Assembly (NCBI GenBank): GCA_001938485.1
Contig: MQRK01217243.1
Coordinates: 1 to 49,946, forward strand
Source of the DNA: Girardia tigrina
Taxonomy: Eukaryota
DNA: 49,946 bases
Direction of reading: 5' to 3'
Part shown: positions 5,301 to 49,946 of the stretch, in pieces
Position numbering within the stretch: position 1 is the first letter of the stretch
How the letters are laid out: each line of letters opens with the position of its first letter
The notes under the pieces: generated by a model
Database searches by the model: none
Seen by the model: only the letters and a program-made list of their open reading frames with translations
Told to the model about the DNA's origin: nothing
Position numbers and translations under genes: made by a program

Positions 5301-8300
5301 TGAGGGACATTTATTTGCATATAGCATTTTTTATAAAAAAAGAATTTTTTGATTTAATAGGTTACTCATTCACAACACTAAAATTTACTTTTGAATTTTC
5401 TGCTCTAGCTACAATTAAATCATAAAAAACGAGAACGTTTTAGCTCACATCGATCAAGAAGTCAGCGTCTGCTTATGAAATGCCAAACCTTAACTGGAAT
5501 TCATTAGTTTGAAGCATCAGACACAGCTATCACACTGAACGTTGTTTCATGTAAATTCTTTGTTTCTTTAAGAAAATATGTATTTTTCTATATTATAAAA
5601 GCTTATGGAATTAAAAATCTAAGAACGAAGAAAATGCTTTTGGTGGGCTGCGAAGAAATTTTCTTCAGCTTGGTGAGCCGCGACAACATTACAATAATTA
5701 ATCGTGTAATTATGGTTTAATAATCAATTAAAATCTCTTTAAATTTAAGTGCGACATTTTGACAACTAAAGAACATACTGTCCAGATGAAAGCAAAATAT
5801 TTAATAAAAACTCACAATTTTAAAACGTTTATTCAATAACCTATAACATCTTGTTGGTTGTTTAGTCTTCGTTTAAAACCCACTCAGCACAACACTCCTA
5901 ATAAAATACTAACATAGTGCTTGAACTTTAATTGCAAGATCCGATAGTCTACTTAATGATGCTTTACATGAATATCGTTCTCAATCCTATAAGAATTCGA
6001 ATAAAATTCATCAAACCCAGATCTGAGATATGAGCATCTTACTGTAACTGTTTTATTATCATTGATAACTAGTTTTAAGAATCCTCGAGATTGCTCTAGT
6101 TTCATTTTTATGAGTGAATTGAGATAATTTAGATGACTATAAATCTGTAGCTTGAGTTTTATTACGAAAATATTAATTTAATATTTGTGAGGGAAAATTT
6201 GGATTGTTGTAAGTTTGTTGTTTGTATGCTGTTTAGATTTGTGACTCTCCTACTCAGATAGGATTGATATGTTTATTGATTGATTATTTGAATCTAATGA
6301 AATCAATTTAATGATATTAATTTTATGTACTAATTAATTAAAGTTTTATAATTATGAATTTTAATAATATTTGTAGTAAACGATTTTAACTTATTAAATT
6401 TAATATATTTTAAAAATTAATGTTTATTTAAAAAATTACGTAATGCCTTTTTATCCAATAAAATTATGAGAAATTAAAAGTTAATATTAAAAAATTTCCC
6501 ATTCATTGTTTTTTAGTTTTGAATACATAAACAAAAACTATATCAATCAAAGAAAGATACTTACTGAGAATTGTTGTGAAGAATCTGTTTGTGTTGTCAA
6601 TAAATGTTTACATTCAAATTGTGATATTGTTAATATGGCGACCACGGCTCATGTGACAACGAACATTATGTTTTAGTAGTAAAATGGAAGAAGAAAGAAG
6701 CAAAACGAAGAATGAAGAAATTTTAAAAATAACAAAGCTTAACATTAAATATGACAAACTGGTTTCAAAACAGTTTCCTTCACATTCGTCTTTACAACAA
6801 TCTAATTTACAAACTTCGAGGGAGTTACATACAGTCATACAATTACATATACAATCGTATACACATTCACATAGACCAAGTATAGATTTTTACATTAAGG
6901 ATAGCATTGTCTTCGGATACACTTACTTTTAGACACTGGTGCTAGAGTAAATTTGATTGAAGCAAGTTTAATTAAAAACATACCAAATATAAGGATTAGA
7001 GAATCACGAAGACGTTTAGCATGCGCAAATACTTCTGAATTAATAAATTATGGAACAGTACTCTTGAAGATTAAAATTGAAGGGAGCCAAAAGAATATAA
7101 AATTCTATATTGTCAAAGGAATGAACCCAGAAATGATAGCAGGAGTGAACTTTTTGGATAATTTTGGGATAAAGCTGTTTAAGAATTTAATAAAAAATAG
7201 TGATGTATTTATGATAATGGATAGCCCATCCGATGAAGACGGATTGAAAAGGATAACGGACCTATACGGAGGTAAGGTCGATGATTAGTTGATGAACATG
7301 ATAAAAGAGTTTAAGTCAATATTCATGGCAGAGAAATGGGATATTGAGAAAACATCATTGACGAAACACAAAATAGAAACTAATGGTTAACCGGTGTTAG
7401 TAAAGCCGTATAGACAACCAAGACATTTTGATGAAAAATTAGACGAAGTTATTAAAATTTTGAAGAAAAGGATATAATCGAAAAATGTAGTTCACGATGG
7501 AACTTTCCATTGGTATGCATCTGGAAGAAAGAGAAACAAGAAATACGAGTGTGCATGGATTTTCGACAATTAAATAAAGTTACTCTCAGACCAGCATTAC
7601 CTATGCCAAATGTGGATGATATGTTGAATACATTGAACGGTGTAAAGTATTTCACTATAATTGACTTTGGAAACGCATGCTATCAAGTTGAACTTGATGA
7701 AGAATCAAAGATTAAAACGATATTCTCGACAAAGAATGGTCAATATTGTTTTAAAAGAATGCGTTTCGGAATAGCAGCCGCTCCGGCCACCTTTCAAGAA
7801 CTAATGGTAAAAATTCTTGGTGAATTGAACTGGAAGGAAGCTGTCGTATATCTAGACGATATCTTGATATTTTATAAGAAAGAACATCTATAAAGAATAA
7901 AGAATGTGTTTCAAAAAATCAAAGAATCAGGTTTGAATATAAATCCAGAGAAATGTCAATTTCTAGGAGAAAAGACCAAGTTTTTGGGCTACGTAATAAG
8001 TAAAGATTGTATAGAAACTGATAAAACAAAGATTGATGCGATTAATAAGTTTCAAAACCCATCATGTATTAAACATCTAAGGAGTTTCTTGGATTTGACA
8101 AATTATTACAGGAAATTCACAAAAGATTATGGAAAATTATGTTGGAAAGTTTTAGGTGTGTGTGGCAAAAACAAGGATAAGAAAATAATATGGGCAAAAG
8201 AATGTGACGAAGCTTTTCAGAGATTAAAAGAAAGAATGGTTCAAACTCCAATCTTGGCGTATCCAGACTTCGATAAAGAATTTATATTGGACACAGATGC

Positions 8301-11300
8301 AAGTTTCGATACGATTGGAGCAGTACTGTAACAAAAAGACTCGAGTGGAAGAGAAAGAGTTATTGTATATGGTTCTCATAAGATGAACAAACATGAACTT
8401 GGTTATTGCATTACGAGAAAAGAATTACTTGCGATATATTATTTCACTCAGCATTTTAAGTATTTCTTATTGGAGAAAGATTCTTGTTGCATATAGACCA
8501 CAAAGCTATTACGTTTATGATGACCGCAAGGAACCCAATAACACCGCAATTTCAAACATGGATAAATTTTCTCAGCGGTCTTGATATGAGAATGGAATAC
8601 AGGAAAGGTGAAAGACATTCAAATGCAGATGCTATGTCGAGAAACTCTTGCGAATTATGTAGTCAATGCCAAACAACACACGAAGAAGCGAAGAGAGGAA
8701 AGATTAAAACTCGAATTCTAGAGTTACACGAAGAACCAAATAGTTTCAAATGGTTGAATGACAATGAAGAAATCGAACAAATCAAGAAAGATATGAAACA
8801 AGGAAGAACAAACAAATGGAAACTGAAAGATGACATTGTAGCAACGGAAAATAATAAGTACTGGATACCGAGTACAAATAGCACCAATTTTATTGAAGAT
8901 ATGTATAAGATGATATGTCATGCTGGAAGTAAAAAGGTTTTTAACTACCTCAGAGATGATTTTGATATGGAAAATATGAGAAAAGATAAATGAAGTTGTT
9001 CAAAGTTGCATAAATTGTCAAAAGCGAAAACCACTAACTGCGAAAACAAAAGAAAGACATATTAAGGAATTTGCAGATGAACCTTTTCAGAAGATATATA
9101 TTGACTTTTGTGGTCCATTCAAGAGAAATGTTAATAAATACCAGTATATTTTGGCAATAATTGATCAATTTAGCCGATAAATTAGCCTGAATGCAGTTGC
9201 TCACCAAGACGAGAAAACGCTACGGAAAATATTGCTGGATATAAATAAATATAGATGTATATATAAATATGGACCACCTAAAGAAATCCATGTGCATAGA
9301 GGCAAAACATTTGAATCCGAACTATTTGAAGAAACACTGAAAAAGTTTAAGATAGAAGTATTTTATTCAAGCCCGTATCACCACAATACCAATGGAATTA
9401 TAGAACGACAATTTAGAACAATTAGAGATGCTCTTAATATCAGAATAAAGGATGGAACGCATAGAGATTGTACGGAAGTATTGTCAGAAATAGAATCTAT
9501 GATGAATAGTATCATTCAAGCAACGACAGGTATCTCACCAGCAGAAATAATATATGGAAGGAAATTAAGACATTGGTGGAAAAATAAAGAGGATAAAAGA
9601 AACCAAATTGGAAAAGAAGAAAAAGCTCCAGAAACGAGAAGAATTTTTAAAGTTGGAAACTAGGTATTGATAAAGAGAGAAAATGCCTCAAAAGAGGATG
9701 ACCGATATATTGGCCCTGTAATGATAATAAGACGGAGACATGAAAGAAGTTACGAATTGCAACTCGACAATGGTCAAAATTACATTTAATATTAATTTTT
9801 AAATTTTATTAAAGCCCTATTAAACTGATATACCAAACAAATGTGATTCACTTTGCTACAAAAGTCTACTGTTTATTTTCATACTGCAAATACTAGTCTA
9901 CCAATCATTCTCCATAATGTCATCCGTTTGAGCGATTTTTTAACAAAAGATTGGTAATTAATATTTCGTCCTAATTTACAATGGTATTTCCTATCCTCAT
10001 CGTTATAGTTTGTCACTTAACTCGTGGCTGTACCAGAATTCCTAAAATATTTGTTTTGAAAAAACTAAATTCTACTAGTATAATTGGTTATGAGATTCGA
10101 AATTAAAAGTTATCTAATTTCCTATACTCAATTGTTTACTTATTATTTTTAATTCTTAGGTTGTGAAAAATGTTTGAATATAAACATAAAAATGATATAT
10201 ATTAATTACCAGTAAGAATACTTTCAATGACTCTGTAATCTTGTATTTTTGTCTAAGAATCTCTGATATACTATATTTTAAGTCTATGAAAATTGCAAAA
10301 GTTATTACAAATTAAATTATGAAATTATTTTGCATTGCCAACTCAACTTGATTCAAGTGGTCTCGTCAAGGAGTTCTTTTGTGGATAAATTAATAATATA
10401 ACATTTTAACATGAAAGATTAATTGATACATTGTTATGTTACTTTTCCTGAATTGGTTAGTTTAATTTGTACAAAATTATAGTCATGAGTGATTATTGAA
10501 GATAGTGGATGATTAATTTATAATAATATATAAGGCTAATTGATGAAAAATAATTTGGGCATTATTATTCCAGATAAGTAAAAATAATAAAATAGTTATC
10601 TAATGAAAACTTCGTTAACGACTATACAACGAAGAGCGAAACGAAGGCTAAGTTAATTGATCGTAATAAAAGTGAGATAGATGTTAGGTATTGTATTTTT
10701 GAACCAACTAACAGTTCATGATCGAGGACTTTGTTGATATATCACTGAAACTTAACTTTCTATCAATATATTTTGCTTCTTTGCAAATGATAATTGGTTT
10801 GATTAAGTATTTTCTGGGATAATTTCTATTTTCGTCACGAGAATAAAAATTAGATTGTTTGGGAAACAAATCAGGATTTTCTTAAGCACTGATAACATTT
10901 TTAGTTAACCCCTTACTGCATGATTTTTTCTATTTTAATAAAAAATATATAATATAGGAAAAGAGAAATAAAGAGATACGTATTTGTATTTTTAAATAAA
11001 TGATTTTTTCATGTAGAAAATCCGAAAATACATTTTGGTCCATTTATGGAACGCTATGCAGTTAGGGTAATAAAATTATGAAAAAATATTTTGATCCACT
11101 ATGCGGTAAGGGGTTAAAGAGTAACAATTTAAAACGAAAGACTGAAAGTGAAAAGATAATAATCTTTCACAAAATATTTTTTCTTATTATATTCTTTTTT
11201 TTTGTCTGCCTAATAATCAGTTATTCGTACGATTATTGCTTTAGTGAGACTGATTTTTTTTATTAGTATTATTAATTAATTAACCCATTAAGTATAAATT

Positions 11301-14300: not shown

Positions 14301-17300
14301 TTAGAAGTAAATTCGGAATTAGTTTAATCAGAAAAAAATATCCGTACAAAATTTAATATAGGGTATTTCGACCAATATCATAATTTTCTCGACCAAAATC
14401 ATGAAATAATTCTATAAAACAGTATTTAACATGTAAATTATGAAAAATGTGAATAAATTTATTATTTTCAAGCCAATCAAAGTTTATTAATTTCGACGGA
14501 TTAACCGTCATCGTCAGAACAAATGATTTTTAAAACGAAATTTACTTATACAGTGCAGTTAATGATTATGCAATCAATACGTCATCAGTACATCATTTAA
14601 AAACTCTCAACAAAGTTGTAGAGAATGCACTTTGAACGTTAATTTTAGATCCAAAGATCTTATATATAACGCTTCACATGTCACTCTCTCCCAATAATTT
14701 TTAAATTGAGTGCACAGAAGTTTAAAGTGTTGTTAATTTATATCTCCTTTACAATATCTTCTATGCTACTTCCACCTTCATTACGACTGTGCTCTGGGAT
14801 TCTTTTACAAAGATTAAACCGTCGAAATTAATAAACTTTGATTGGCTTGAAAATTTTTTATTCGACAGTTTACCAATTTTATTCAAATTTATTCACAAAT
14901 TTATTATTCATTTATTTTTTCTCTATTAGAACACAATTAAATAACCAAACATTTGTCTAAAAAACGAACTACAATAATTATCTGTAACTTTGATAAAGTT
15001 AAATTTCTTAATTCTTGTTCATGTTTTGCATTTCCTCGAATTAATAAATTTTTCCATACATAAGATACATTTTCGATCGGGTTTAGAAAAGGTGAATAAT
15101 GTGGCAAATACTTAATGTTCATACTTGAAATTTCGAGATCATTTAATAAATCCCTGTAATTGTGACTTTACGTGTTTTCCATTACAAATGTTGCTGAATC
15201 TAGAAATGCATGGTATTTTCATTTCTTTTAACGGATCTTTAAACATTTCATCATTTACAGCTTGTTCATAAATTTTATGATACAAAATTCCATATTTATT
15301 CATCGCAGCTACAACAGAGATATTTCGGCTTCGGGAAGTTGGAACAGAAATGAATGCTGATGTTGCTTTTTTGCTTCGACCTTTATTTGATCTTGTCACA
15401 ACAGCAAAGTCTACTTCATCCAAGAAAATAAAATTTTTATCATCATTTATTGTTTTCCAATCTCGAATTTGGTTTGTATATGTTTCACGGCTATCAATTG
15501 TTGATGCTGTATTTCTTCTTTCTGGAATCCCATCAACATTTTTTATTGTATAATGAAATTCTCTTAGTACTCTTTCAATAGTACTTATTGAAACCCACAC
15601 ACTAAATTTTGCCACTCTTCTTTTTATCACCAGAAGTTTTCTTAACAACTTCTTTAGTGATTTTCTTCACACATTTGGCAGCAACTTTGGCAAGCATTGT
15701 CAATTTTTTATCCTTATCAGATATCGAAAATTTTATTTCGTTTTCTATTTCATCCGGTATTTTATAAATGAAAAAAGGAAGTATATCTTAGTAAAACACG
15801 CAATAAGTAATTGTGTAATCATCTTGGAATTTTTTATCAGGCACACTCCAAGAGGTTTTCAAAGACCCACTTGTACATTTATGCAAGCAATATTTAATAA
15901 TCTATCTTTGACCATCTCCCAATAAATTTTGTAAAACAAAAAATTCCTTAAACGTTTCAGAATCGCCGAAATATATAAACAAGTTAATAAAAAGTCTAGT
16001 GACAATTTAAGCGCAATTTCCTTATGTTATTCGGTGCCCAAATATTAAAACGTTTATATCAGTATTTGACTATGATTAATTTTTTGTNNNNNNNNNNNNN
16101 NNNNNNNNNNNNNNNNNNNNNNNNNNNNNNNNNNNNNGTTGTCTATTAATTATTAAAACGTTTATATCAGTATTTGACTATGATTAATTTTTTGTGACCG
16201 AACGAAAGAATATTTTTGAAAACTTTCTTCGGCAATATTGTTCTAAATTATTGCAGGACTCGATTGGTAAATGTTTCAAGTCGCTAAGTGGTCTGGTTGC
16301 CGAGATATAGGCCAAAAACTGCATTTTTTCGAGGTTTTTTGGCTTTTCCCGGAAATCCAGGAAGGAATTCCGGGAATTTTTTTGGCCCACAATCATCCTC
16401 CGAACTTGCTTAACATATTTACTTTTGGAACTAGCCCTCGATATTGCTTCGTTGAGGAGGAGATACGACTTAAAGCTGCGGACACACATCCATCCATCCA
16501 TCCACACAGAAATAACCAATTAATAATCGCAATTGTCAGTATGGAAATTGCGCTAAAAAGTTGTATTGCGCAACTACTACGGGTATTTTATAAAAAAATT
16601 ATACCAAATTGTCAAAATCATTAAAAGAGCTGTACTGAAGTTCAAAAAATTCGCTCTAATCGTCGGAATCTTAAAAGTTGGATTTTTTGGTTATATTATA
16701 AGAAATATAATATAAAAAATATTTGCATAAAGTATTTGAGGTAGTAAATTAAAATTCATTCGAATATATTTTAATAAAAAGATAAGAGATAAACTAACGA
16801 TTTACTAAAAGAAAAAAGAACAGAAATGTAAAATTAAATTAGAGAACATGTTTTGAAACAAAAATATTTTAAAATGTTTTTATCGCTTGAAGAGGGTTGA
16901 AAAAGTTTCTTTTTGTGTTCTTTACGTTATTTTTACTTTTTAATAATATTCGATCTTTTGTTATTTTAAAGTGTATCTTTAAAATAATTAAACGTTAAAA
17001 CATTAAAATACCTAAGAATGTTTGATTCTGACATATTAAAAGATGAATTTTAATTATAAAATTATATCTTATACATTTTTCATTATTTTGAGATGATACA
17101 TTATTAATTGAATAGATTAAATTTCAGATTTAAGTGTTCATTGGGGTTTTTGTTATTATATAATTTTGATGGACTGCTTATTTATATCTATACTTCACAT
17201 TAATTTAATAATACGGTAATTGACGTATATTGTAAAATGTTCCAAAATCCCAAAGTTTTCTGTATTAAAAGTAAATTTGGGACATATTTATGATCTAATA

Positions 17301-20300
17301 TGTGAATTCCAGGTGTAGAATATAATAGGAGTTGTTAAAAATATAATGTATGTTATAATTACAAATTAATACAACCAAAAAATTAATATTCAGGCATTAG
17401 TACAGAAAAAGTGGCCAAATCTGATTTAGATTTACATACGTTAGCGGCCCAAATTAATGGAGATTGGTTCAAACTAGCAGAAGCTCTTGGAATCACTGAT
17501 GAAGACACTCTAAACAGCCTGAGTTCAGAAAAGGATCCAGCCTACGCTCTTTTATTACTGTGGAAGTCACGGAGAGGGGATTCACCACATGGTTATTCAA
17601 TTTTACAATATATTTCTAATGTCTTCCTAAAATATTGATCTTTAATATTAGGTATATACATATGTTAATCATATTTATACTTTTCATAAGGAACTTATTT
17701 TGATTTTTTCTCTAATTAATACTCTTTTCGATTATCTACTTTTTTATAGTGAACATTATGGGGTCATTTATTTCGAGACAGAGTATTTTTCTTAGAATTA
17801 TTTAAAAAAATTCTGATTTTTTCAGCTTTTTCAAAATATGTTTTTAATAATTTTGTTTTTAAAATGAAACTTTTTTTGGATATTTACACAATATTTTTTT
17901 ATAAATATTCTATAAATGCTTCTTTTTTTCCTAATGTTATTTTATTGATATAAAAAACGTCTTTTTGATTTAGCAGATCAAAGAGACATGAATATCTGAG
18001 AGAAACAAATAAATTATTTCCGGCCAGACGTTTAATATTTTTTGTCGATGTTTTATTATTGCTTTGAAAATCATTCAGATTAATTATTTAACCGTTTTTA
18101 ATAATGTACGCAATTTATTTTTGGAAAGTTTTATTGTTTTAATGAATTTTTAAAAAATCTAAAAACATTTATTCTTGTATCAAAATCTGCAGGATGTTTT
18201 CCATAGGTCGTTATTTTAGATTATGGTTTATTAAATATAATCAGCTTTTGTAAATATTAGTTTGTATAAAAATAAGATAAATTTAACACATATTGACGAA
18301 CAATAGTTCTAAACTTAATAAATACATTTATGTTTAAAGTTTATCTAATAACTAAGGTCACAAAAAGTTTGTTTTACAAAAAAACAGTGTACCTCAATCT
18401 TTTCCACTTCAAAATATTAGCCGTTAGTTCCAATGCACCTGTCTCATTTCCGTTTCCATCGTTCAAAACATTTACAAAGGTTATCAGAAATCCAGCTTTC
18501 AAGTTCCGTACAACTTGAATTTTGGGTATAAAAATAAACTAAAGGAACTAAGTCTTACGAATCTTGAGTGATCTAGCGTTGTAATTGAATTACAAATCAC
18601 AAATTCTCAGACAATGAAAGCAGAATAAGTGGTTCATTTTCGTGATTCAGAAGCTATTAATCACACAAATTCGGTCGCACTCGACGTACATGATCCATCA
18701 ACAGTTTGTGAACCTCCACGTAGACCTTTTGTGTGAGAAATCCATCAACAATGGAGATCGATAGTCTTTTTGGTTCTACGTCATCGTCGCAGTCTTCATG
18801 GCTTTCTCCGAAACGCTTGATCTACTTGAAAAAAATCTGTTTTTTTAAGTTATAAAAATAATGCCAACTTTAACACTACGATTATCTAGATGACCTCATA
18901 GTTAAAATGCTTCAGTATGTTCCTCACCATCAGCGCAGCCAACGATGTTTTCACAATGCTACGTATGTACGAAGCTTTGCCAAATTTTTGGTCAATATTT
19001 TACTTAATATTAGTGGTACTAAAACGAAATTAATGAATAAAAATTTATAAATAATTCTTATTATTAATTTTAACGAAATAGATACCTTCCTTCACGTTTC
19101 TCTTATTTTTTTGAAACATTTTGCCTAACAATAACGTTTTAAATGTTGTTTCGATTTGTTATCAACTTTAAAAATTCTACGATCCAAAGAATGTTACATT
19201 TCCCTTTTAAGTCAAATTAGATGGCATAAAATCTAGAGGCCATTATTGGTTTCTTATTGTTATCCAAGACGGGCTTTTAATTTTATCCTTCGTCACTTTT
19301 ACATATAATATCATTTTTTACATATTATCATACTAAAAATGTACTCAAGGACGACTTGACAATGTGGAAGTTGTTCTAAATTTATACAAGCTACTACTTA
19401 AAATCGAATTATACTCTTATTGTTTGACAGGGTTAGAAGGTTTAAACATTAAATGTAAATAGTCGCAACCCAAGGGATTTTGTCATTGATAAAATGATAT
19501 TTTTCAGAATGTTTAAAAATACCTAATTTATCTGTTTTTATCCAAGATTAACCAATTTTCAAGATTAACATGTTCGCCGAATTTTCTGTTAAATCAAATG
19601 TTCTATTTTTAATAAAGTATAAATTTTCAATATTAAAACTATTCCTCACAATAGGTAATGAATTGGATAAAGCTCTACATACCATCGGTCGAGAAGATAT
19701 AATCAAAAATTGTTTGCTTAATACAACTGTTGTAACTAATGAAAATGAAAAAAGAAAAGCTTTTAAAGAAATAAATGGTTAATAAGTGATTTGGAATAAA
19801 ACAATTACATATTACTATTAGGCACTCATTACTTACATACTGACAAGCGAGGGTCACTGGATGGAGACGATAAAGCATCTCAAGGAGAAGATGATACGAA
19901 ACCATCAGTTGAAGAAGAAGATAGTTGGATTAATAATTAAATCAATTTTTTATAATTGCTAATGCAGGTGACGAGTCAATGATCATTGCAACTATCAAGC
20001 CAGGATCCGTGGTGAGAACAGACGAGAATGACAATGAATTACCTGATATGAAGAAAAATGCCTTTAATAATTTAATAGATATGTTAGATCAGATTTTACC
20101 GGAACCACTAATCCATGATCCTACTTATGACGATAGTGAGTTATTCTGAAAAGAAATGAATTTATTTCTATTTTTACAAATTCTTCAGATTCTGTGAGCG
20201 AAGATGAAATTTCTGCTAAAATAATAGAAAAGCCTGATAATATTCATCTTGATTTTTCCGCTATACCAGACAAGTTTGATGAAACACCAGAAGAAGATCA

Positions 20301-28087: not shown

Positions 28088-30123
28088 GTAACAATTCAGA
28101 CAATTTGTGCACATGTGAGTTTTATTTTATTCATGTAACTTAAAATGGTTTACTTAAAATAAAATTGTGTTTGAGAACTCGTATAATATGAGTGCTATAG
28201 ATATGCACATTGTAAAAATAATAATTATGACACTCTCATATTGGGTGTGTTTTATAAAGTACTTAGGTTTTCAAAAATGTAATTGTGAGAAGTGGTTGCA
28301 ACCTCAATATCAGGATTCATTTTTTAACACCAAAATTTATATATATAACAATTCACATATTTAAAACAAATTTTCCTGTTAATTTAATTATCTCGACCCA
28401 AATTAATCTATTAAATTCTTTGCGATTTAATTTTTAAAATCCTGAAAATTTATTTTCAAAATTTATTTCAAAGTTTATTTAAAATTGCTTATTAAAAATA
28501 TTTTTATTTATAAATAAATATTTAATATTTTTGTTTTCTTTACATTTTTAATTTTAAGATATTTAATAGATGCATTAAAAGATTTTTTTATTTTTAAATA
28601 GATATTTTATTTTTTATGATTTTCTTTTATTATATCATTTTTAATTTTTTTAAAATATTTAAAAACACATTAAAAATATTTTATTTTTAAAAGCGTTTTT
28701 GATTTTTTAAGTTGTTTTATTACATCATTTTTAATTTTAAAATATTGAATAAGCATATTTACATAAAGATATTTTACCCTTTAAATTAAAAATAATAAAT
28801 TATTCAGGCGAGATAAAAATTTAAATTAACCCCTCATAGTAATAAATCTTCCAAAATCGATTCCAAATTTTACTTTTTATTTAATTTAATTTTACTTATT
28901 ACTTTCTCTAGAAGAAATTGTGGATTATTGAATGTTGTTTCAGCAATGTGGAGCTACCTGGTACCTAAACGAGGAAACTATTACCTTGATTCGTAAAAAA
29001 ACCCTAAGCATCATATTTCGCTTCACCTTTTGAATTGCAGAAAATAATTCTAAAAGAGCGTATAATCAACAAAACAACTAAACTTCACACTCGATACGGT
29101 CTATGCAAAATTGGATGGTTTTGGTATCAGAAAACTATAATTCAGATTTGAACCTAACTTGTGAGATGATGCAAAACAACTTAATTCTTTGTAAGTAACG
29201 TGGATAGACTTTACTGGCAAATATGATTTCGAATAACCATTCACTTGATTGAAATCAAACGTGTATCATTAGAGTAGAAATTTTCTGGAGAGAAATCATC
29301 TTTAAAAATGCAAACATGGACATTCCAGAGACGAGTGACGATGCTTTCCTAGTTATGGTACCAAAAAGCATCATACACATCACTTTGTAGACAAAATCTT
29401 TGAAATAAACTCTATTACAGTGAGATCATTGCAACCTCCAGATAAAAAAGAAAGCAAAGCAACTCACCATTACGGTTCCTACAAAACCCCATTAAGTATT
29501 CTTGATTAAACGCTGGTCGATTACTGATATTTTCAAATCATAGTAAACTGAATTTCAACATGATAAAGACGCAAAACACAGATACAAATTATTCAAGCAG
29601 TACATCGTCAATCAGTAGATTTAGATGGATGAATTTCTGGCAAATAGGCTAAATCTCATTCTGATCGCAAATTTGGATGGAGTTATTTAGGAAAACCTTG
29701 AGCAACGAAAGCCGCGAAAAGTTTATAACTAAAAGACTTTCTGAATGATGAATATGTCAGACCAAATAATTAATAAAAATTGAGAAAATGGTTATTTGAG
29801 TAGTTATTAATAAAGATAAAACTATAATTATAATATTCTTTTAATGTTCAATTTCGTTCTTTAAAATATTTATAATTAAAACTTTACAGACCGCACAATA
29901 TCATGTAACATTACTAACTCTAAAATCTTTTTTAGATAAATTTTTTAAAATACAAAAATCTTTATTGCTTTGTTTCAACTTTTTGTTTAAATATTCGTTA
30001 GCACTTTTATTTAAAGCGTGTTTAAAATTATTAAAATTAATATTATTCAAATAAATAGGATTTGTAACATAAAAACCTAATATTGCCTCAATTTTCGCCT
30101 TAAACTTATTTTTATCAAATCTA

Positions 30124-30320
30124 TTTTTAATAAAGTGTTTAGGGCCAAATCAATTTTCAAACAGCATTCTCAACTAATTTGTTAAGAGTTTTCGATTAGA
30201 CTTGCGTAATTGATTACGTAATCATTCATTTGTTATATAAGAGCAATAAAAAAGAACATAATCAGTGATCTGATGATGACGGTTAAACCGTCGAAATATA
30301 TTATCACGAAATATATTTTT
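30124..30320 (+). mobile_element. 3' fragment of a Penelope-like retroelement
   Basis: Encodes LIKCLGP.INFQTAFSTNLLRVFD*, homologous to INVQSAFSTTLLRVF* of the copy at 14465-14853, followed by a related 3' UTR and a hammerhead motif. Confidence 0.78.
30265..30307 (+). ncRNA. Minimal type I hammerhead ribozyme
   Basis: GUGAU CUGAUGA U GACGG-UUAAA-CCGUC GAAA UAUA UU^ AUCAC. Perfect 5-bp helix I, 5-bp helix II, palindromic helix III (AUAUAU); predicted cleavage after 30302. Confidence 0.85.
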
Positions 30321-32188
30321 AAATGACGTTTATTTGTTTAAAATTATTTATTGCTCGATTTGGATTGTGAAGGTAATAAACGATTGTCTTTCGAACGTAA
30401 TAGATAACTAATGCCAATGGTACTGAAAATCGTTTGCCCTATGTAATAGTTGATTTATCCCGGGTCATTTATTTAAATCAACAGTTAAATTTAACAATAA
30501 ACATATTTAATAATATTATGGTATTAATATTTATTTCTTAATTTCAGATTTAGATTATTCCATTTACAACCGATTGACTTGGATTTATTATTGTTATTTT
30601 GATTATTCTTAATTTGAATTCTTTGAAATTTATTATCATTGTTTATAAATCGTAAAGTTTATCAAGACTCCCTGTTTGAAACATTTTATTAATTTGAGGC
30701 TTTATTTCGTTTGAATCTTTTTTATGTTTTTATTTATCCAAATCTTCTATATATCTTCTGTGATTAAAACTGTGTTGAAGAATCAATTATTTTGGTAGCG
30801 ATAGATAAATCTTCGGTTTATTGAATCTTATTAGATGGATTTATTTGTGTTTAGCGAAAGTGATGTGAGTCTTTGAAAAAACGACAACTGTTGACATTCG
30901 TTGATATTTTGGACTTATTAAAGCAAAAATTTCGATTTTCCTTAGTGTTATTCGTCAATAATCGTTGAGTTTGTATACGTGTAACGCAATGGAAAGAAAA
31001 TTTTGATTTCAGTTTGCTTTAATTTTTTTTATAATTGATGTTATAAAACCGGTTTTGGCTTTATTATTTATTTAACATTTATTGTTCAAAAAAAACTGTG
31101 AATTTTTTGTTGATGTTTATTGAAGAGTATAATGTATAATGAAAACACCATATTGTATTTTTAGTTGCAGCCATGTTATTATTATCATTATTATTTATGA
31201 TGGATTATAGCAAATATACTTGTTTATACATATATATTGCATTGTTGAATCAATTTTCAATTGTTATATTTTTCTTGTAATGTAAGGCCTAATAATTATT
31301 GCAATTAAATAAATTTAAGTAATTACTTATTTCTTCTTAATTTCTGGTCGATTCACAAGGGTATTCATAAGAAAGTGTCAAACGTATTTGAAATGAAAGT
31401 ATAAATTTTTCATAGATTTTTCTAGTCAACTAATTTGGTTATACGATTGCAGTGAATTAGTGTGAATTATTTAAAATGTATTGAGAGCTTTTATTATATT
31501 CGTCTTAAAATATTCAATCATCAGTTTCTGGAATTAATAATGAACTGCCGCGCAAAGACGACTGCAGAATTCAGAAGATTTGTTTTTAAAAGGATTTCTG
31601 AGTTAATGCACTTCATGGAAAGGAAATACATACATTAAAAACTGCATTTTATCTTTGAAAAGTTCACAAAGTCATTCTTTTTCGGGGAGTATGAAAAATT
31701 AATGGTTGAATTAGTTACCTTTTTGAGTAATTATTTAACGTAGCAATGTTCGTGTGAAAAAAAGGTGAATCGTGAATCACAGATATTAATAATGATTAAT
31801 TATAAAGTATAATTAAAAATAATGTTGAAACTTTGGATGATATCCTATTGAAGGTTATTAAAAATATATTACTAAAAGTTGTTGCCATTGAAATATTTTT
31901 TTCAATCTACGGAAACCCAGAATTTAATTCATTTGTCAGGAACAAATTCGCACTCTTATTATCGATTTTATATATCTGTGCCATTTCAGGTTCATTATGG
32001 GCTTAATCAAAGTCAATTAGGAAATATCAGAATCATTTAGGAAACAATAAGAGTAATTTTGTAAAATTTTCGTTCTTTTTGGAAAGAGTCATAATCATTT
32101 GAAAATTTATAAAGAGCATTTCTGGAATTTAATATCAATATCTTTATTTCAAAATAATAACAAACATCATAAAATCGTAATATACCTG

Positions 32189-32321: not shown

Positions 32322-35300
32322 TTCTTCCTCGCTGATTAAATCTCTCATATAGTCCTTTAAATATCCAGGGCTTCTTTTCATACGATGCGGTCGGCCATCA
32401 CCATGGTTTTTTCATTTATACTTCTGTTCCTTTGGTCTCTATTTGGATTTCATCCGTGCTGTTCTCCGCATGCAAAACTGGATTCTGAGTTCCAGAAGGG
32501 TTCCTTGTCAAATGCATTGATGATATCGTGTCCACTCTTTCCGACTTAGGAAAACAAACTTGAACCACATGAAGTGAGATAACATTTTACATTATCACTT
32601 CGTCCGCCAAGTGATTCGATTTGCTTACCCTCTTCATGTTTTTGAGAGAGGCCTCATTCCCAGGGGCGACCCATGATGGCAAACTTGCTTTTACTTTTCC
32701 TGGAATCCAATCTGCGCCGGAATCCAAAAAATTATTTCATGTGGATTTTCCATCCCAATTGCTCTTGATGGAAGGGCTCTAATGTTCATAACTGCTCGTT
32801 GAAGCTCACTCGTCCACTCGACAAGTGGTCTACGGGCTTGGCGCAGTTTCAACTGAACAGTTTTTCATATGACTTCATTGAGGCATTCACACTGACCATT
32901 TTCCGCGGGATGGTACGGAGTTGTTCTCATTTTATTGATATTCCAAGTTTTGAGGAAATCAGCAAATGCCCGACTTTCAAATTGGCACCCTTTGTCACTT
33001 TGGATTTTGCATGGTGGACCAAAGGTTGTAAACAGCTCTTCCAAACACTGAATGACAGTGTCTGTCGACATTCGGCACAGAGAACGCAAATGGAAATCTT
33101 GAGAATTCATCAATAACCGTTGGAATATAAGATTTTCCACGAGATAGCTCTTTTGGGCCCATAAAGTCAATCGATATTCTTTGCCATGGTCGTTTTGAAA
33201 GCACTAGTTTCAGATCTGGTATTTTGATAAACTTGGGTTTGAGTTTCGCACATATTCGGTATTGTCGGATGCATTATTGAACTACTTTTCGAGTATATTT
33301 AATTTAGAATTTACTTTCGATGTACTTTGTCAACCTTCCAATCCCCGGATGTCCCATTTGTTCATGTATAGATTTCACAATGACAGAAATCTCATCAGAA
33401 ACACTCATTTTTTCTAGTAAACCCGTTGAGCATACATGACTGAGAGCATCCGCTACTCGATTTGCAGACCCTGACCTATACTTTATCTCAAAGTCAATCT
33501 CAGCCAATCTGATTCGCCACCGTTCCATTTTTGCATTTTTCACTCCTCCTTTGGGTCTGCCATCAAAAGGATAAGCAATAGAAAGGTCGGATGTGCTCTA
33601 CTACCGCTACAATGGCGAATGCTTCTTGTTCCACAGCTGGCCAATCACTCTCTACTTGATCCAATCTACGAGAGAAAAAAAAGAAATAGGATGCCCTTCT
33701 TGAGACAACAGTGTACCAATTGATTGAGCGGATGCATCTTTTTTCTAAAACTGAAAATCCATTTTCTTTAGGAATCACCAATGATGCTGAGCCAATTTCC
33801 TGCTTGAGAATAGTGATGGCTTGCTTGCATATGTCACTTAGAGGAAATAATTTCTTAGCTTTCGCCTCATACAAAGGTTCTGCATTTCTCGAAAAGTCTT
33901 TCACCCACTTTGCATAGTACACCAACATTCCATTAAGTCTATCCAATTGTTTTAGGCTTTGAGGATCTAGAAACTTTAACAGATGGGTCAACCGACTTTT
34001 ATCTGGTAACATCTTACCATTTTCGAATGTATGTCCAAGGAAATTCATCCTGGTCTGAGCCAGTAATAATTTTGCTAAATTTATGGTTAGATTGATCTCG
34101 TTTCCTTTAATGAGAAAGGCTTTCAAATTACTATCATGCTCTTCGCGTGATCTGCCACAGAGGAACACGTCGTCAAAATAACACATTACACCAGGTAAGC
34201 CAGCCACAATGTGACTCATAGTTCTACAAAAAGCTACCACACCGTTTTTAACTCCAAACGGTAGTCTCGTAAACTGCCAAAGATTACCATCAACCTCAAA
34301 AGCCGTTAATGGTTGTTCACTCTTCACTAACGGTAACTAGTGGTACGCTGCACGAAGGTCTAACGAACTGTAACAGTTGTATCCATGAAGTTTTTTCAAC
34401 GTTACCAGAATCAGTGGAACCGGGAATGCATCATGTTCAGTAAACCAATTAATTGTAGTAGCGTAATCAACAGCCAATCTTTTCTTTCCTCCATGTCCGT
34501 TCACTACCACTACTTGCGATTGCCATTGAGATTTTGATTCCACAATGATGCCTTCGGATAACATTCGTTTAACCTCTGATTGAATAAAGTTCTGGTCAAC
34601 TTTCGATCTGTATCTTGAAGGTGTGCACACTGGCTGTATTGTTGGTATAAACGTGCCCAACGAAACTGGGTCCATCCGTAAACTCTTCTGACAATATCGT
34701 CATAGTGCTAGTAACGTGCAGTAGCGGGAATGAACCAGGAAGATATATATGAAGTCCACTGAAATTTCCAAGTATATCCATACTCAAAACTGCTTCTTCG
34801 GCCAACCTGGTTGCTATAAATACTTCTGCATCCACGAAAGCTTCTTTCAATTCCATAACAATAGATCCCTTTCCAACAATTGCAATTTGTATTCCATCAA
34901 CAGTGACTTTACACAACTTTTTACTATAGGCATGCCCAGACTCTTTGCGAGCTTCATGGAAATGATGGAAATTTCACTATCACTGTCCAGGAGCCATCAA
35001 ATGCGTCTACCCATTATCGTGGAAGACACATACTTCCGATTAGCTCTAAGTGTCAGAATACTAGCAATAATGCCTGAACTCTGAATAGTTGAATACCTTG
35101 CTTGACGACAGACTCTCTTGAAATGACTCATAATATTTCATTTGTAACCGATTTTCTGTGAGGCAGGACAATCTTGATGAGAGTGACTAACTAATGAACC
35201 ACACCATGTACATCCTTGGCGCAATCCTCAGTTTTGCTTCTCCATGATGTCCCTGCTGACATGAATTTGAACTCCATTAGTGCATCGATTGGTTTGGACG

Positions 35301-35907
35301 AAGCCACGATATTGAAGATGCTATTCTGTTTATTTTGTTTACAGCTTCTAATAGTGAATCTAGCGGCTTCCTTACGTTCTGCTACAGCAATAGCATCCTT
35401 CAAATCGAACTTCTTTTTGGCTTTGTCTCTCGCTGCAAATTCTTTACAAACTGTTGCTTGAGTTCCTAGATCTCGCAAGCCCCGACCAAATGAATCCCGT
35501 AATGCCCCGTCTTCGAAATTTGCTGGAAATTTACAATATTTCAATAAGGACCGTAGTTGACTCACATAGTCATGGATGGATTGCTCAGGCAACTGCTGAC
35601 ACGTATAAAGCTTGATCCGTTCTGAGAATACGTTCTTGTCAGCACACAATTTGGAGTGTAAAATTCGATAGCCGGGAGTGCAAGGTGACCTTAGCTGCTG
35701 TTTGTCAGTCGCTCCTACGTCTCTTCATAATAACTGGCCAACTGATCCCCAACGCACAACAGGAGTGTGTCTAATTTGTCATCTTCTGCAACTTCTGCCA
35801 ACCTAAGGAAACAATCGAAACGACAAATGAATTTTTCAAAACCCGATGCAGTAAGATCCATCAGCTGAGGAGGATTAAATTTGGCTATCATTGTTTGTTT
35901 ATTAAAT

Positions 35908-39789: not shown

Positions 39790-42700
39790 ATGAATCAAAA
39801 GTCGAATTTTCTTTCATATGAAGGATTGCATTTATCAGTTGCAATCGAAACACCGCATTATTTAACGGAATATGTCGTAAGTACACGTCGAAATAATGAT
39901 CAATGACACAAATCTATTTGAACATTGTCACAGGAATATCCTGTCAAAATAACGATCAGTGCACACGAATCTCTTCCTGGAGAATCGTATGTCGTCGTTA
40001 AACGATATTCCGATTTCGATTCATTGAAAAAATCGCTAAAATTAGTTCAATTTTCGACGAATTTACCGCCGAAAAAAGTGTTTGGAAAATTCGATATGAA
40101 TCTTGTGAATGAGCGCCAGATTCTCTTGGAGAAATATTTGAAATCGATTTTGAGTACTCCGATCGTTGGGAAATCGGTTTCCGTGACGAATTTCTTTCAG
40201 AAATCCGCCGATTTCATTGTCGATTATTCGAGTAAATTTATCGATTGATTAATTATAATATGATCGAAAATAATTTTTGATGTTTTTTGCTGTCGAGTGT
40301 GTTGAGAAAACGAGTGTACTTGGTTATGGATCCGCTTCGGTTTGAGAGTATCTTGCACGATCGTATTTGTACATAATCTTCATTTAACTTGCTTATGCGT
40401 GTCGATTGTTTCGGATTTATTAGAAATTTGTTTCTGCAATATTGTTTAAAAATTTCCAATTAAATGTTTTAATTGAATTCTAGAACAATTCTTTTTATTG
40501 ATTATTTTCGGTCAATATTTGATTATTTATAAATACTCAATAATTATCCTAATTTATTTCTAAAAACATTTTTTGTCATTTATTACAGTCGCTTGCAGTT
40601 ATTAATCATGCAAATATTTTTTTATTTATTCTTATTTTTACATAGAAAATTAACTGAAAATAATTTAAAAATCAGAAAATTTAAAAAAATTATTCAATAT
40701 TTGCTAAGTTATTTAATAGAATGCTAAGTAATTAATTTTTTAAAATTTTTTAATTATTTTTTAGCATTTAAAAAAAATTTTAAAAAATTATAAAAAAACT
40801 TTTAAAAAATTGTTTATATAATTGATATGAGAATCCCATATTGCGCGAATAAGACGAAAGCTGTTGCTGCCATAAATTTAGAACAGGGGCTAGCCTATCA
40901 CTATAAAAACCAGACTGCAGACGGGAAGAAAGTTTATTATAGGTGTAAAAATGCGCAATTTAGAGGCCACAGTGCGATGCTGGTGCCTATCTCTGGTACA
41001 AAAATACCTCTGAAGAAGTTGTTTTATTCCGCTCCGGAAATCCGCATTCCTGCACAGGAATTGATAGAGGGCTTACAAAGGAAGCCAAACTTGTTGTTAG
41101 AGGGCTTTTTGACCTCAATGTAAAGGCAAAACAAATTCTTGAAAATTTATAAGAAAAAAACAATCCTGTCAGATGTAAATCTCAAGTTCAGACATACTTG
41201 AATGCATTGAAATCAGAAAAGTATGGACAATCGACCTTTAGCCTTGGAAAGCTTGAAGAATGGTGTCTGAACCATTTTCGTAAAGAAGATGATGATGAAG
41301 ATTCTGCAGTTGTTATCGGCTATCAAGTTGTTATTCATGATGATTTTCATGAATTGAATTGTGATCTTAATGAGAATTGCTTTCAGGTTGTGATTTCTAC
41401 TTCGCGTCTCATTCGAAATATGTATTTGTCAGATAAGTTACATGCCGATGCAACTTATAAGCTTGTTTATGAGGGTATGCCCGTGCTTGTTATAGGAGTA
41501 ACGGACATGAATTTACAATTTCATCCTTGCTGTATTACTTTATGTTCAAATGAAAAACAAAGAGATTTTGACTTTGTTTCTAAAACTATACGTCGAGAGG
41601 CAGAATTGTTAAACTGCACTCTTAGAATAAATTGTTCAATTTCAGATGCATCAAATGCCATTCGAAATGCATTCTTGGATGTATTTGGAGTGGATAAGCT
41701 ACTGGTGATGTGTTGGGCTCACGTGCGAAGAAATACAGTGAAGCATGTGCATCTTTTGACAAATAAGAGACTTTAGACAGTCGAAATGGAAGATATTGAT
41801 ATGCTTCAGCTTTCTTCAAATTCAGAAATGTTTTATAAAGCAATGGAATGCTTTATCATAAAATGGAGAAATGAGCAAGGCTTCATCGATTTTATGTTTA
41901 GTTCTGGATGGTTCTCTAGTCATTCAAATTGGTATGAAAGTGTAAAGAAAAGAACACCTTCTACAGATAATGCACTAGAATCATTTATTAATGTCATTAA
42001 AAACGAAGATACGTTCAGAGAAAGGTATCCACTAGGAAGATTTATGGAACTTTCATTAACTTCAATCAAAAGATGATCTAATCTGTATAAGAATAAAGAT
42101 AAAATCTTTTTTGAAAAAACAGAACCATCTTTAGAACAATGGACGATATCATATCAGTGGACCAGAATGAAAAAGATATTAGCATTAGAGAAACAGAATT
42201 CGAATTTATATATTCTGTTCCTGCAGCTTATAAGCAAAGTGTTACTGATGATGAAATTAAAATTGTCGAGGAGATGAGATGGTCAACTTTTGATGACTTT
42301 AAAGTAAAGGCTTTTACTGTTTGTAATTCGTCCACTAACCAATGAAAATTGGCATGCTGGTTCATGCACTTGTCCATACTTTCTGAAATGTTTTGTCTGT
42401 AAGCATCTTTTAGGACTTGCTATACGCTTGAAGCTCTAATCTGCACCTCCCGCAGCAAAAAACATGCCCATTAGGGAAAAAAGAAGGCGTGGAAGGCCAA
42501 AGAAAACTTCCAGAGCACTGCTCATTGATTGAAATAAATCGGTTTTAATAAAGAATTATATTTTCATTGTGTTTTGAATTTTTGTGACTTTATGAATAGA
42601 ACCTGAGCTTTTATCATTTCGGCTTTGGGAATTCAAATTATTTGTTTATCCAATTCTTTTTCATCTGACTCTCGAAAAAAAGTTCGTTTTTTAAACATTT

Positions 42701-46837: not shown

Positions 46838-48448
46838 GTAATACAATTTTACATTATATTTTTATTCTACCTCTTATTATTGGGTTTTAATAATATTTAC
46901 TAATTTTTTTCTAGTGATTTTTTTTAAAAAATTAAATGAAATAAAATTAATAAGACTATTTCATTAAAAAGCTACAATCTCAACAGTTGATTTAGTGTAA
47001 TTGAGGATTGTCTTATTAATGTATTATTATTGTTTAAAAATGAGAGTGGTTTTTTAAAATATCTGACCACAACTTTGGTATTTCCGAGCAATTAATTAAT
47101 TAAAAAATGGTTCAGAGTTCCATGATGGAGTTTTTTGTTTAGTCTGTGACGAACGCTCTAGTCGAAGTAGTGAGATTGCTACTAACCAAATACCAACATT
47201 ACTTGAAAATAATCAACATTACGCGATATAATGTTTTGGATTTCCATAATTTATTTTATTTCACATTGTGATTTTGCTTCGGGAAATAAAAAAAAATGAA
47301 TCGTGTTTAATAATCTAGAATAAAAAATATACGAATATTTAAAGTTACCTCCATAAATCCATCACAAGACTTTTTGCCACCCCAAAAATATCATGATTTG
47401 AATTTTAAATTATGAATTGCTTATATAACAAAATTATTACTTCTGAGAAATGTTTTTCTCAGATAAATCAACTGAAAGCAAATATTGAAAACAGTTAGCA
47501 GAAGCACGTAACAAACTCGATAAAAAATTTATGAAGTTTAATCGGGAAGTTAATCATATTAAGTAAATAGATTTTTGGGTCTTTTTAAAAGATTTCGAAA
47601 AAGCGTAAAGAATGTCTTCCAGTTTCCAATTTGTATGAATACTTTCTTCATAAAGAACTCAGTGATGTAGAATTTGTGGATGGTGAAAATGAGGAAATAA
47701 TAAAAAAAGTTGAAGAAAAATGTAAAGAAAAGCATGCGAAACTTATTGAGATTTTTATGGATGCTGAGAACTTTTGTATTGAAGATGAAAACATTTAATA
47801 AATGTATTTAATACGTAATCTTTTTACTATGTGCATTTTGTTAAAATACTTTTAAATCTTACCAATTTACTAGTTGATAACAAAAATAGCATAAAATTAT
47901 AATTTTTATACTTTACACTGTATTTATTCTGAATTATATTTTAACCATTGTCATTTAATCTTTAATCATTTAATCGTTTTAACATTGGTTTTTATCATGT
48001 GGGGTTTAAGAACACTTGGGTTCATAGGAGTATATTCCCAATAATCATGCGGAAACGCAGACGTTTCGTCACGTCATCACGAATTTCTGCAAATTTTTTC
48101 TCTATTTTATTCCAGTAAGATTTAGCTTAATCTAGCCACATTCGATTACCTTCATTTGCCTGTTTACTATGTCCGATCGTACTCGAACTCCTCCAACTCG
48201 CTCGTCTTGATTCGTTTTCATTCTTATAAAAAATTTCGTCGATTAAATATTTTACAGAATTGTACAGCTTGCCCTTCAAGTTTTGCACAATAAACATTAT
48301 ATTCTCTATCAGCCGTTTGTTTATTGCATCACAAATAACAAAACCACAGAAAATCTCTCAGAATCTTTTATTCTAAAATTTTTTTGCACAATTAAAACTA
48401 AATCATCTATTCAAACAACGAACATTACAATTTCTACTAAAATTTAAT

Positions 48449-49560: not shown

Positions 49561-49746
49561 TTTATGGAATCTAATATTCTATATAATGTTAGGTGGAGCG
49601 GAGAATTGCCGATTTGACCGAACATTTTTGCCAGTTTCAGAAATTCATAAATAACACATATAATTAAATTAATAAATTAAAATAATTAAATAAATCTTTA
49701 CTTGAATTAAATAAAGTAATTAACGAAAAGAATATATATATATATA

Positions 49747-49891
49747 TATTTCGAAAATATAATTTGATTAAAGCTTTTTTAATACAACTATTGGACATGT
49801 TTCGATTTTTAAAAAAATCATCATCAGCAAAATCGAAACATGTCCAATAGTTGTATTAAAAAAGCTTTAATCAAATTATATTTTCGAAATA
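49747..49891. repeat. Perfect 63-bp inverted repeat with a 19-nt spacer
   Basis: Arms 49747-49809 and 49829-49891 are exact reverse complements. (TA)n tracts lie on both sides. Confidence 0.97.
49791..49830 (-). ncRNA. Minimal type I hammerhead ribozyme (GUC site)
   Basis: Minus strand: UUG CUGAUGA U GAUUUUUUUAAAAAUC GAAA CAUG UC^ CAA. Intact core, A/U-rich helix II closed by G-C, palindromic helix III (ACAUGU), canonical GUC triplet, helix I UUG/CAA. Confidence 0.8.
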
Positions 49892-49913
49892 CTAAACTTG
49901 CGTTCACAAGACT

Positions 49914-49946
<33 letters not shown>

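Follow-up and report, generated by a model that had tools for sequence, protein, structure and literature searches.

The hairpin near the end of the window (the whole stretch of 49,946 nucleotides of Girardia tigrina DNA analyzed here) is best explained as an extremely 5'-truncated insertion of an EN+ Penelope-like element (PLE). It measures about 170 bp and lies in a (TA)n tract; its direct end accounts for 84 nt, and its inverted end, which includes a 27-nt tail, for 90 nt. We put the probability of this reading, which includes a likely origin in one TPRT event and a likely immobile and non-cleaving product, at about 0.9. An extremely 5'-truncated PLE was among the origins offered in an earlier note on this DNA, and it was supported by the recovery of the parent family, which encodes reverse transcriptase (RT) and GIY-YIG domains. 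The parentage, the boundaries, the two 3' ends of the family, the 2-nt overlap at the junction and the ORF start in the arm were all read directly.

The two arms (49747-49809 and 49829-49891) were complementary at 63 of 63 positions across a 19-nt spacer, and pairing stopped at the arm ends. They were the sole 100% pair among the best 25 inverted repeats (by length) listed for the window, which has a base composition of 29% G+C. The CUGAUGA core of a minus-strand hammerhead was found as described in the earlier note, which had seen a perfect fold-back built around this ribozyme. The left arm adjoined a (TA)n tract directly (49732-49749, the last 3 nt being common to the short 3' end of the element). 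The right arm was followed by 27 unique bases and then by (TA)n (49919-49946), which continues past the window end. The 27 bases (49892-49918) also belong to the element, as seen from contig cover and from a 97-nt match to a related contig, L001 (below). The size of 145 bp assigned earlier was therefore too small, the insertion being 169-172 bp (49747/50-49918). The placement of the element between (TA)n tracts held when 49892-49918 was counted, and failed for the 145-bp version.

On the minus strand, 49747-49830 formed the direct, 5'-truncated pLTR end of 84 nt. It began 3 nt before the hammerhead core and contained these 3 nt of helix I, the core, helix II, the helix III palindrome and ORF codons 1-17, terminating at the short 3' end of the family. 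The inverted pLTR arm (49829-49891, plus strand) started within helix II, on its 3' strand and 6 nt before GAAA, and lacked the catalytic core. The Penelope tail of 27 nt (49892-49918, plus strand) brought this copy to 90 nt; it was present on the inverted arm only, and not, as had been thought, in both arms. The two copies overlapped by 2 nt at the inversion junction (49829-49830), and contigs of the family diverged at 49830 and 49832. In the tail region (49889-49919), a 12-bp stem was predicted on the antisense strand (z -3.06), compared with a weak one on the sense strand (z -0.87). These z-scores came from 2 of 6 folds computed and were kept out of the evidence.

A 20-nt piece of the tail, used as query, retrieved one metagenome contig, L001 (JACCDN010023602.1). 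It carries an open ORF of 549 aa, the stop of which lies 141 nt before the same hammerhead as in the hairpin. The ORF contained an RVT_1 domain (E 2.2e-11) and, at the C-terminus, a GIY-YIG domain (E 3.5e-4; 21.3 bits, just under the curated cut-off of 22.6). L001 was identical to the inverted arm plus tail at 93 of 97 nt (window 49829-49925, L001 1825-1921), to the direct end at 76 of 84 nt (L001 1804-1887) and to the tail throughout (L001 1888-1914). The tail in L001 was followed by only 7 nt of TA.

The L001 protein belongs to a 90% cluster of 15 members, which includes P0133, a protein of 836 aa that shares 97.5% identity with the L001 ORF over 518 aa. The N-terminus of P0133 was identical at 26 of 26 residues to the translation of 49840-49917 (plus strand), and the translation of the direct end corresponded to P0133 1-17. 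ORF codons 1-17 are thus represented by the arms, and codons 18-26 by the tail. The earlier claim that the element has no coding sequence was thus contradicted, as it contains the start of an RT/GIY-YIG protein. The 3' end of L001, behind the ORF, encodes the N-terminus present in P0133, as expected from a pLTR repeat.

The link between arm and protein was obtained through the P0133 cluster look-up, after direct peptide searches had come up empty. Searches with the arm peptide gave 0 of 1 candidate, 0 in 1.84 billion representatives and no Pfam match. The open frame of the arm was by itself of no significance (P 0.07), and the window peptide matched the N-terminus in 1 of 9 distant full-length relatives. 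Pattern scans produced 0 and 1 matches in metagenome contigs, 0 in genome contigs and 0 in viral contigs, and P0133 as query gave no further loci.

Both the L001 ORF and P0133 had the makeup of an EN+ PLE, namely a single ORF with an RT containing YVDD and with GIY-YIG at the C-terminus. P0133 has DKG at 310, CxxC at 767 and H..H at 789-801 (CCHH in EN), and has neither a CX2-5CxxC linker nor CxC. Penelope/Poseidon elements are characterized by DKG, by CCHH in EN, and by having no CX2-5CxxC linker and no N-terminal EN or CxC, as given in PMC8557442. By these motif criteria alone, the parent protein is assigned to the Penelope/Poseidon pattern. None of the 120 relatives listed was a named PLE reference protein, and no published name for the parent family was found in the databases and literature searched.

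To follow the family in other DNA, contigs of four public runs from three studies (X1, X2, X12 and X3, with X1 and X2 from the same study and X1 possibly the run from which the window derives) were aligned to 49700-49922. The numbers obtained were 4806, 3813, 74 and 594, respectively, which showed a repeat; 1414 of the 4806 X1 contigs matched at 99% or better. Summed contig depth gives no copy number, and the absence of cover in the bins 49700-49755, where the repeat was skipped in alignment, carries no weight. Contig cover ran on through 49892-49918. Among the loose-end rows listed (24, with 185 further), ends with a (TA)n consensus were found at 49891 in 39, 30 and 5 contigs (X1, X2 and X3) and at 49918 in 14 and 13 contigs (X2 and X3). 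Two X12 contigs ending at 49891 in these rows entered non-TA sequence. Two 3' ends, separated by 27 nt, thus exist in the family, and the insertion uses one of them on each side. The tail was backed by the loose ends at both positions together with the match to the P0133 N-terminus. The (TA)n consensus at the loose ends also supported targeting of (TA)n, which the earlier note had proposed to check. The family ends enter (TA)n although P0133 has no CX2-5CxxC linker, which is tied to (TA)n targeting in PMC8557442; no report of such targeting without the linker was found in the literature searched.

At the junction, 48, 46, 5 and 18 contigs in the four runs exited the hairpin at 49830 into other sequence, and 22, 16, 1 and 9 contigs entered at 49832 from other sequence (among the rows listed). 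The first 13 nt of the X1 loose-end consensus at 49830 were those found upstream of the core in L001, which are native pLTR. Variable ends attached to RT/GIY-YIG ORFs had been named beforehand as the sign of truncated PLEs, and the outcome pointed to this origin. The other suggestion, a minimal ribozyme-only non-autonomous element, was not supported, given that the arms are an ORF start and that contigs pass at 49830 into native pLTR. Two weak signals were also noted. One X2 contig had a different inversion joint, from 49806 to 49859, with a 25-nt side. In 10 X2 contigs with a loose end at 49857, the consensus resembled the hairpin junction at the far end (agreement 0.69, median 15 nt). No contig spanning the whole hairpin was present among the 32 pieces listed (9266 further pieces).

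The hammerhead was found with a purpose-written motif descriptor, with which 99.9 kb (both strands) were scanned. There were three matches (14517, 30270 and 49827), all 3 of them within Penelope relics. In an Rfam scan of the window, 0 of 4 matches at E<=1 were to a hammerhead. On the minus strand, the core CUGAUGA (C3-A9, 49821-49827) was followed by an extra U, which is typical of the minimal hammerheads of PLEs (PMC4209133). Then came helix II of 6 bp with a 4-nt loop (49804-49819), followed by GAAA and the palindromic helix III (ACAUGU; 49794-49803). The core, the extra U and helix II's 5' strand came from the spacer; the 3' strand of helix II, GAAA and CAUGUC came from the arm. Cleavage was predicted after the GUC of CAUGUC (C17, at 49794), within ORF codon 2. 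The traits of a minimal PLE hammerhead (CUGANGA, the extra nucleotide, helix II with G10.1-C11.1, GAAA, palindromic helix III and NUH) were present, except for a helix I of 4-5 bp. Helix I was 4 bp in L001, and the inversion junction cut it to 3 bp in this copy.

Compared with L001, pairs 1-3 and 5 of helix II were kept, including G10.1-C11.1, pair 4 was changed on both sides from G-C to U-A, and a sixth pair was gained. This covariation comes from two sequences only and gives thin support, as the pattern scans and P0133 provided no further loci. The start codon of the ORF (49798-49796) lies inside the helix III palindrome (window 49798-49794, L001 1836-1840). Cleavage at the predicted site would therefore strip the start codon from the downstream RNA. 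An alternative start at the AUG formed by A9-U-G10.1 was ruled out; P0133 starts in helix III.

For the hairpin, the computed folding energy was -86.1 kcal/mol, versus -52.7 kcal/mol when the hammerhead helices were forced, and the computed probability of the G10.1-C11.1 pair was 4e-6 in the hairpin versus 0.95 in L001. The duplex of the helix III palindrome was computed at -6.0 kcal/mol. In a minus-strand transcript, the inverted arm would emerge first and pair with the 3' half of the ribozyme. A plus-strand transcript, in the sense of the PX exon (below), contains no hammerhead core. If transcribed, either strand would form the 63-bp stem. On the basis of these computed folds, the hairpin is predicted to keep the hammerhead from folding, and cleavage at this copy is unlikely. 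With a helix I of only 3 bp and its 3' half predicted to be sequestered in the stem, the ribozyme here is regarded as inherited cargo. The element as a whole is probably unable to move or to self-cleave.

As described in PMC8557442 and, for Pen2a, in PMC3846280, insertions of EN+ PLEs frequently show 5' truncation; a second copy, inverted and likewise truncated, lies next to them, and one end bears a tail of 30-40 bp. The hairpin has the inverted 5'-truncated copy and a tail on one side, slightly shorter than quoted. The anole element PAc was reported to nick both strands of AT-rich DNA in vitro, and its reverse transcription to start at two internal sites, the tail being the span between them, with uncut RNA as template (PMC11167929). 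AT-rich targets were also reported for Penelope (PMC3846280). By analogy, the GIY-YIG endonuclease of the element may have introduced a nick into each strand of the TA tract. Reverse transcription would have begun at two internal sites bracketing the tail, ORF nt 52 and 79, like those of PAc in vitro. Priming on the two opposite strands of the tract would have given two cDNAs that both ended early, one 3 nt beyond the hammerhead core and the other inside helix II. The 2-nt overlap would then have served to link them head to head. The template was presumably uncut, since the copy extends 36 nt beyond the predicted cut site.

The presence of the tail on the inverted arm only argues that one cDNA copying itself would not suffice, unless the tail of the other end was trimmed later. 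Self-priming on an antisense template, the origin preferred in PMC3846280, may also have operated; with such trimming it gives the same product as the two-primer mechanism.

The hairpin might instead represent a non-autonomous fold-back family, in which the hairpin, its junction being fixed, gives rise to transcripts that the parent RT/endonuclease copies in trans into TA microsatellites, and feeds small RNA against the parent. This is in keeping with the high contig counts on the arm, with the junction-like consensus of the 10 X2 contigs, weak as it is, and with the report that pLTR sequences sufficed for trans-mobilization in Adineta (PMC3846280). The contigs at the junction, on the other hand, mostly pass into native pLTR (the 48, 46, 5 and 18 above, among the rows listed), and the one X2 contig with another joint differs from this hairpin. 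Of the ORF, only 79 nt are left in the stub. PAc in vitro required the initial 172 nt (PMC11167929), and, if PAc is a fair analog, the stub would fall short. The RT start sites, moreover, would sit on opposite strands of the 63-bp duplex. The outer ends are common to many family contigs, and the contig data do not count the copies with the 49829/49830 junction. No mobile PLE fold-back family was found in the literature (titles and abstract openings; supplements of the cited papers were outside this scope). We consider such a family improbable.

An assembly or library artefact, such as a fold-back read or a mis-join of a single pLTR end, would account for the zero mismatches of the arms, the location at the window end beside a TA tract, and the absence of the junction among the contigs listed. 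A fold-back, however, would produce a mirror image of the flank and would be unable to add a tail missing from the other arm. The arm ends also coincide exactly with the two 3' ends of the family, and the same layout recurs at 14464-14854 with 40/41 identity. An artefact is accordingly very improbable. The terminal inverted repeats and the TA context would also suit a hairpin MITE, a DNA transposon with a chance resemblance to a hammerhead. This has the least chance of all, the arms being made up of pLTR and N-terminal codons from an element with RT and GIY-YIG; it was refuted by the L001 DNA match and the P0133 N-terminal match. The truncated EN+ PLE insertion remains the preferred reading.

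The earlier note had also called the element probably very recent. The 0/63 mismatches only bound the divergence of the arms below about 4.6% (95%). The identity with the P0133 N-terminus and the many contigs at 99% are consistent with a young subfamily, judging from sequence, and leave this copy itself undated.

Two further Penelope relics occur in the window. The one at 14464-14854 is also a fold-back, with 41-nt arms (40/41), a decayed GIY-YIG end and the hammerhead at 14517 (minus strand); its inverted arm, too, begins inside helix II, 10 nt before GAAA. The other (29500-30330) has a hammerhead at 30270 (plus strand), behind a decayed endonuclease end and of the same family as that at 14517. 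A relic of an inverted PLE ORF at 29901-30149 (minus strand) was not an inversion of the pLTR type. The two relics resemble each other and were matched by 8 and 6 of 134 proteins (other relatives), respectively. Neither was matched by L001 DNA or P0133, which in the window matched the hairpin only. This, together with their mutual likeness, indicated a second PLE family, in agreement with the earlier statement that the hairpin shares its layout with the 14464-14854 copy and belongs to a different family.

An exon for a PX domain was found at 39922-40245 (plus strand; Pfam E 1.3e-14). The protein search with this exon gave 0 of 132 candidates, and Atlas returned PX families, not PXK. The frame at 48126-48290 is reminiscent of the kinase-like part of PXK. 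A short open frame after the AG at 49593 (plus strand) could be a further or the last exon, which bears on whether the element lies in an intron, as the earlier note supposed for PXK. Exons for ankyrin-type ZU5 and Death domains were seen at 1828-2641 and 17387-17638. Two broken sets of LTR-retrotransposon-like ORFs (6905-9663 and 32865-35724) and several DNA-transposon-like relics were judged by eye. A weak Rfam match to SNORD123 (15193-15261; 32.8 bits, gathering 45) lies in a transposase-like frame and is likely due to chance.

Earlier descriptions exist for the layout, for this class of ribozyme and for the bias in target, and the hairpin is the EN+ Penelope layout at minimal length. As a single insertion it has little weight; it is useful in that it documents Penelope integration cleanly, with the junction, the parent protein and the two start sites of reverse transcription legible to the base. 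Both pLTR-type inverted arms in the window, from two families, stop within helix II, one 6 nt and the other 10 nt before GAAA (n=2). These stops and the predicted removal of the start codon could inform the origin of inverted pLTRs and the role of the hammerhead. Were the fold-back family real, no PLE-dependent element would be smaller, and mobilization would need no more than about 80 nt from the start of the ORF.

The hairpin shares with the described EN+ PLEs (Penelope/Poseidon; Adineta Pen2a; PMC3846280, PMC8557442) the head-to-head direct and inverted ends, the short overlap at the junction, the tail on one end and the AT-rich target. The first ORF codons lie in the pLTR in both, for 12 aa in Pen2a, or 22 with the tail (PMC3846280), and for 17 and 26 here. 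It differs from them in its direct copy of only 84 nt, which has no RT/EN sequence, in its tail of 27 nt versus 30-40, and in a TSD unreadable inside (TA)n.

With the minimal metazoan PLE hammerheads of Cervera and De la Pena 2014 (PMC4209133), it has in common type I, the extra nucleotide 9/10.1, G10.1-C11.1 and a palindromic helix III needing a dimer. These were reported not to cut as monomers and to cut weakly as dimers, and opposite-strand pairs 100-700 bp apart were considered probably truncated PLEs. The hairpin, in contrast, has one complete core only, a helix I of 3 bp, and a ribozyme buried in the 63-bp stem.

As in PAc (Poseidon, Anolis; Frangieh et al. 2024, PMC11167929), the hammerhead and the start of the ORF overlap, the tail is bracketed by two 3' ends, and an AT-rich target and an uncut RNA template are common to PAc and the family of the hairpin. 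The PAc ORF, however, starts at stem II with the cut 26 nt downstream, whereas the ATG here is in helix III with the cut in codon 2. The 3' ends are at ORF nt 52 and 79 here, compared with about 111-118 in PAc. The non-LTR retrozymes (bioRxiv 10.64898/2026.07.22.740005) are likewise short PLE-derived sequences with type I hammerheads. They are described as tandem repeats with at least two complete hammerheads, whereas the hairpin, with a single inverted pair and one core, falls outside this class.
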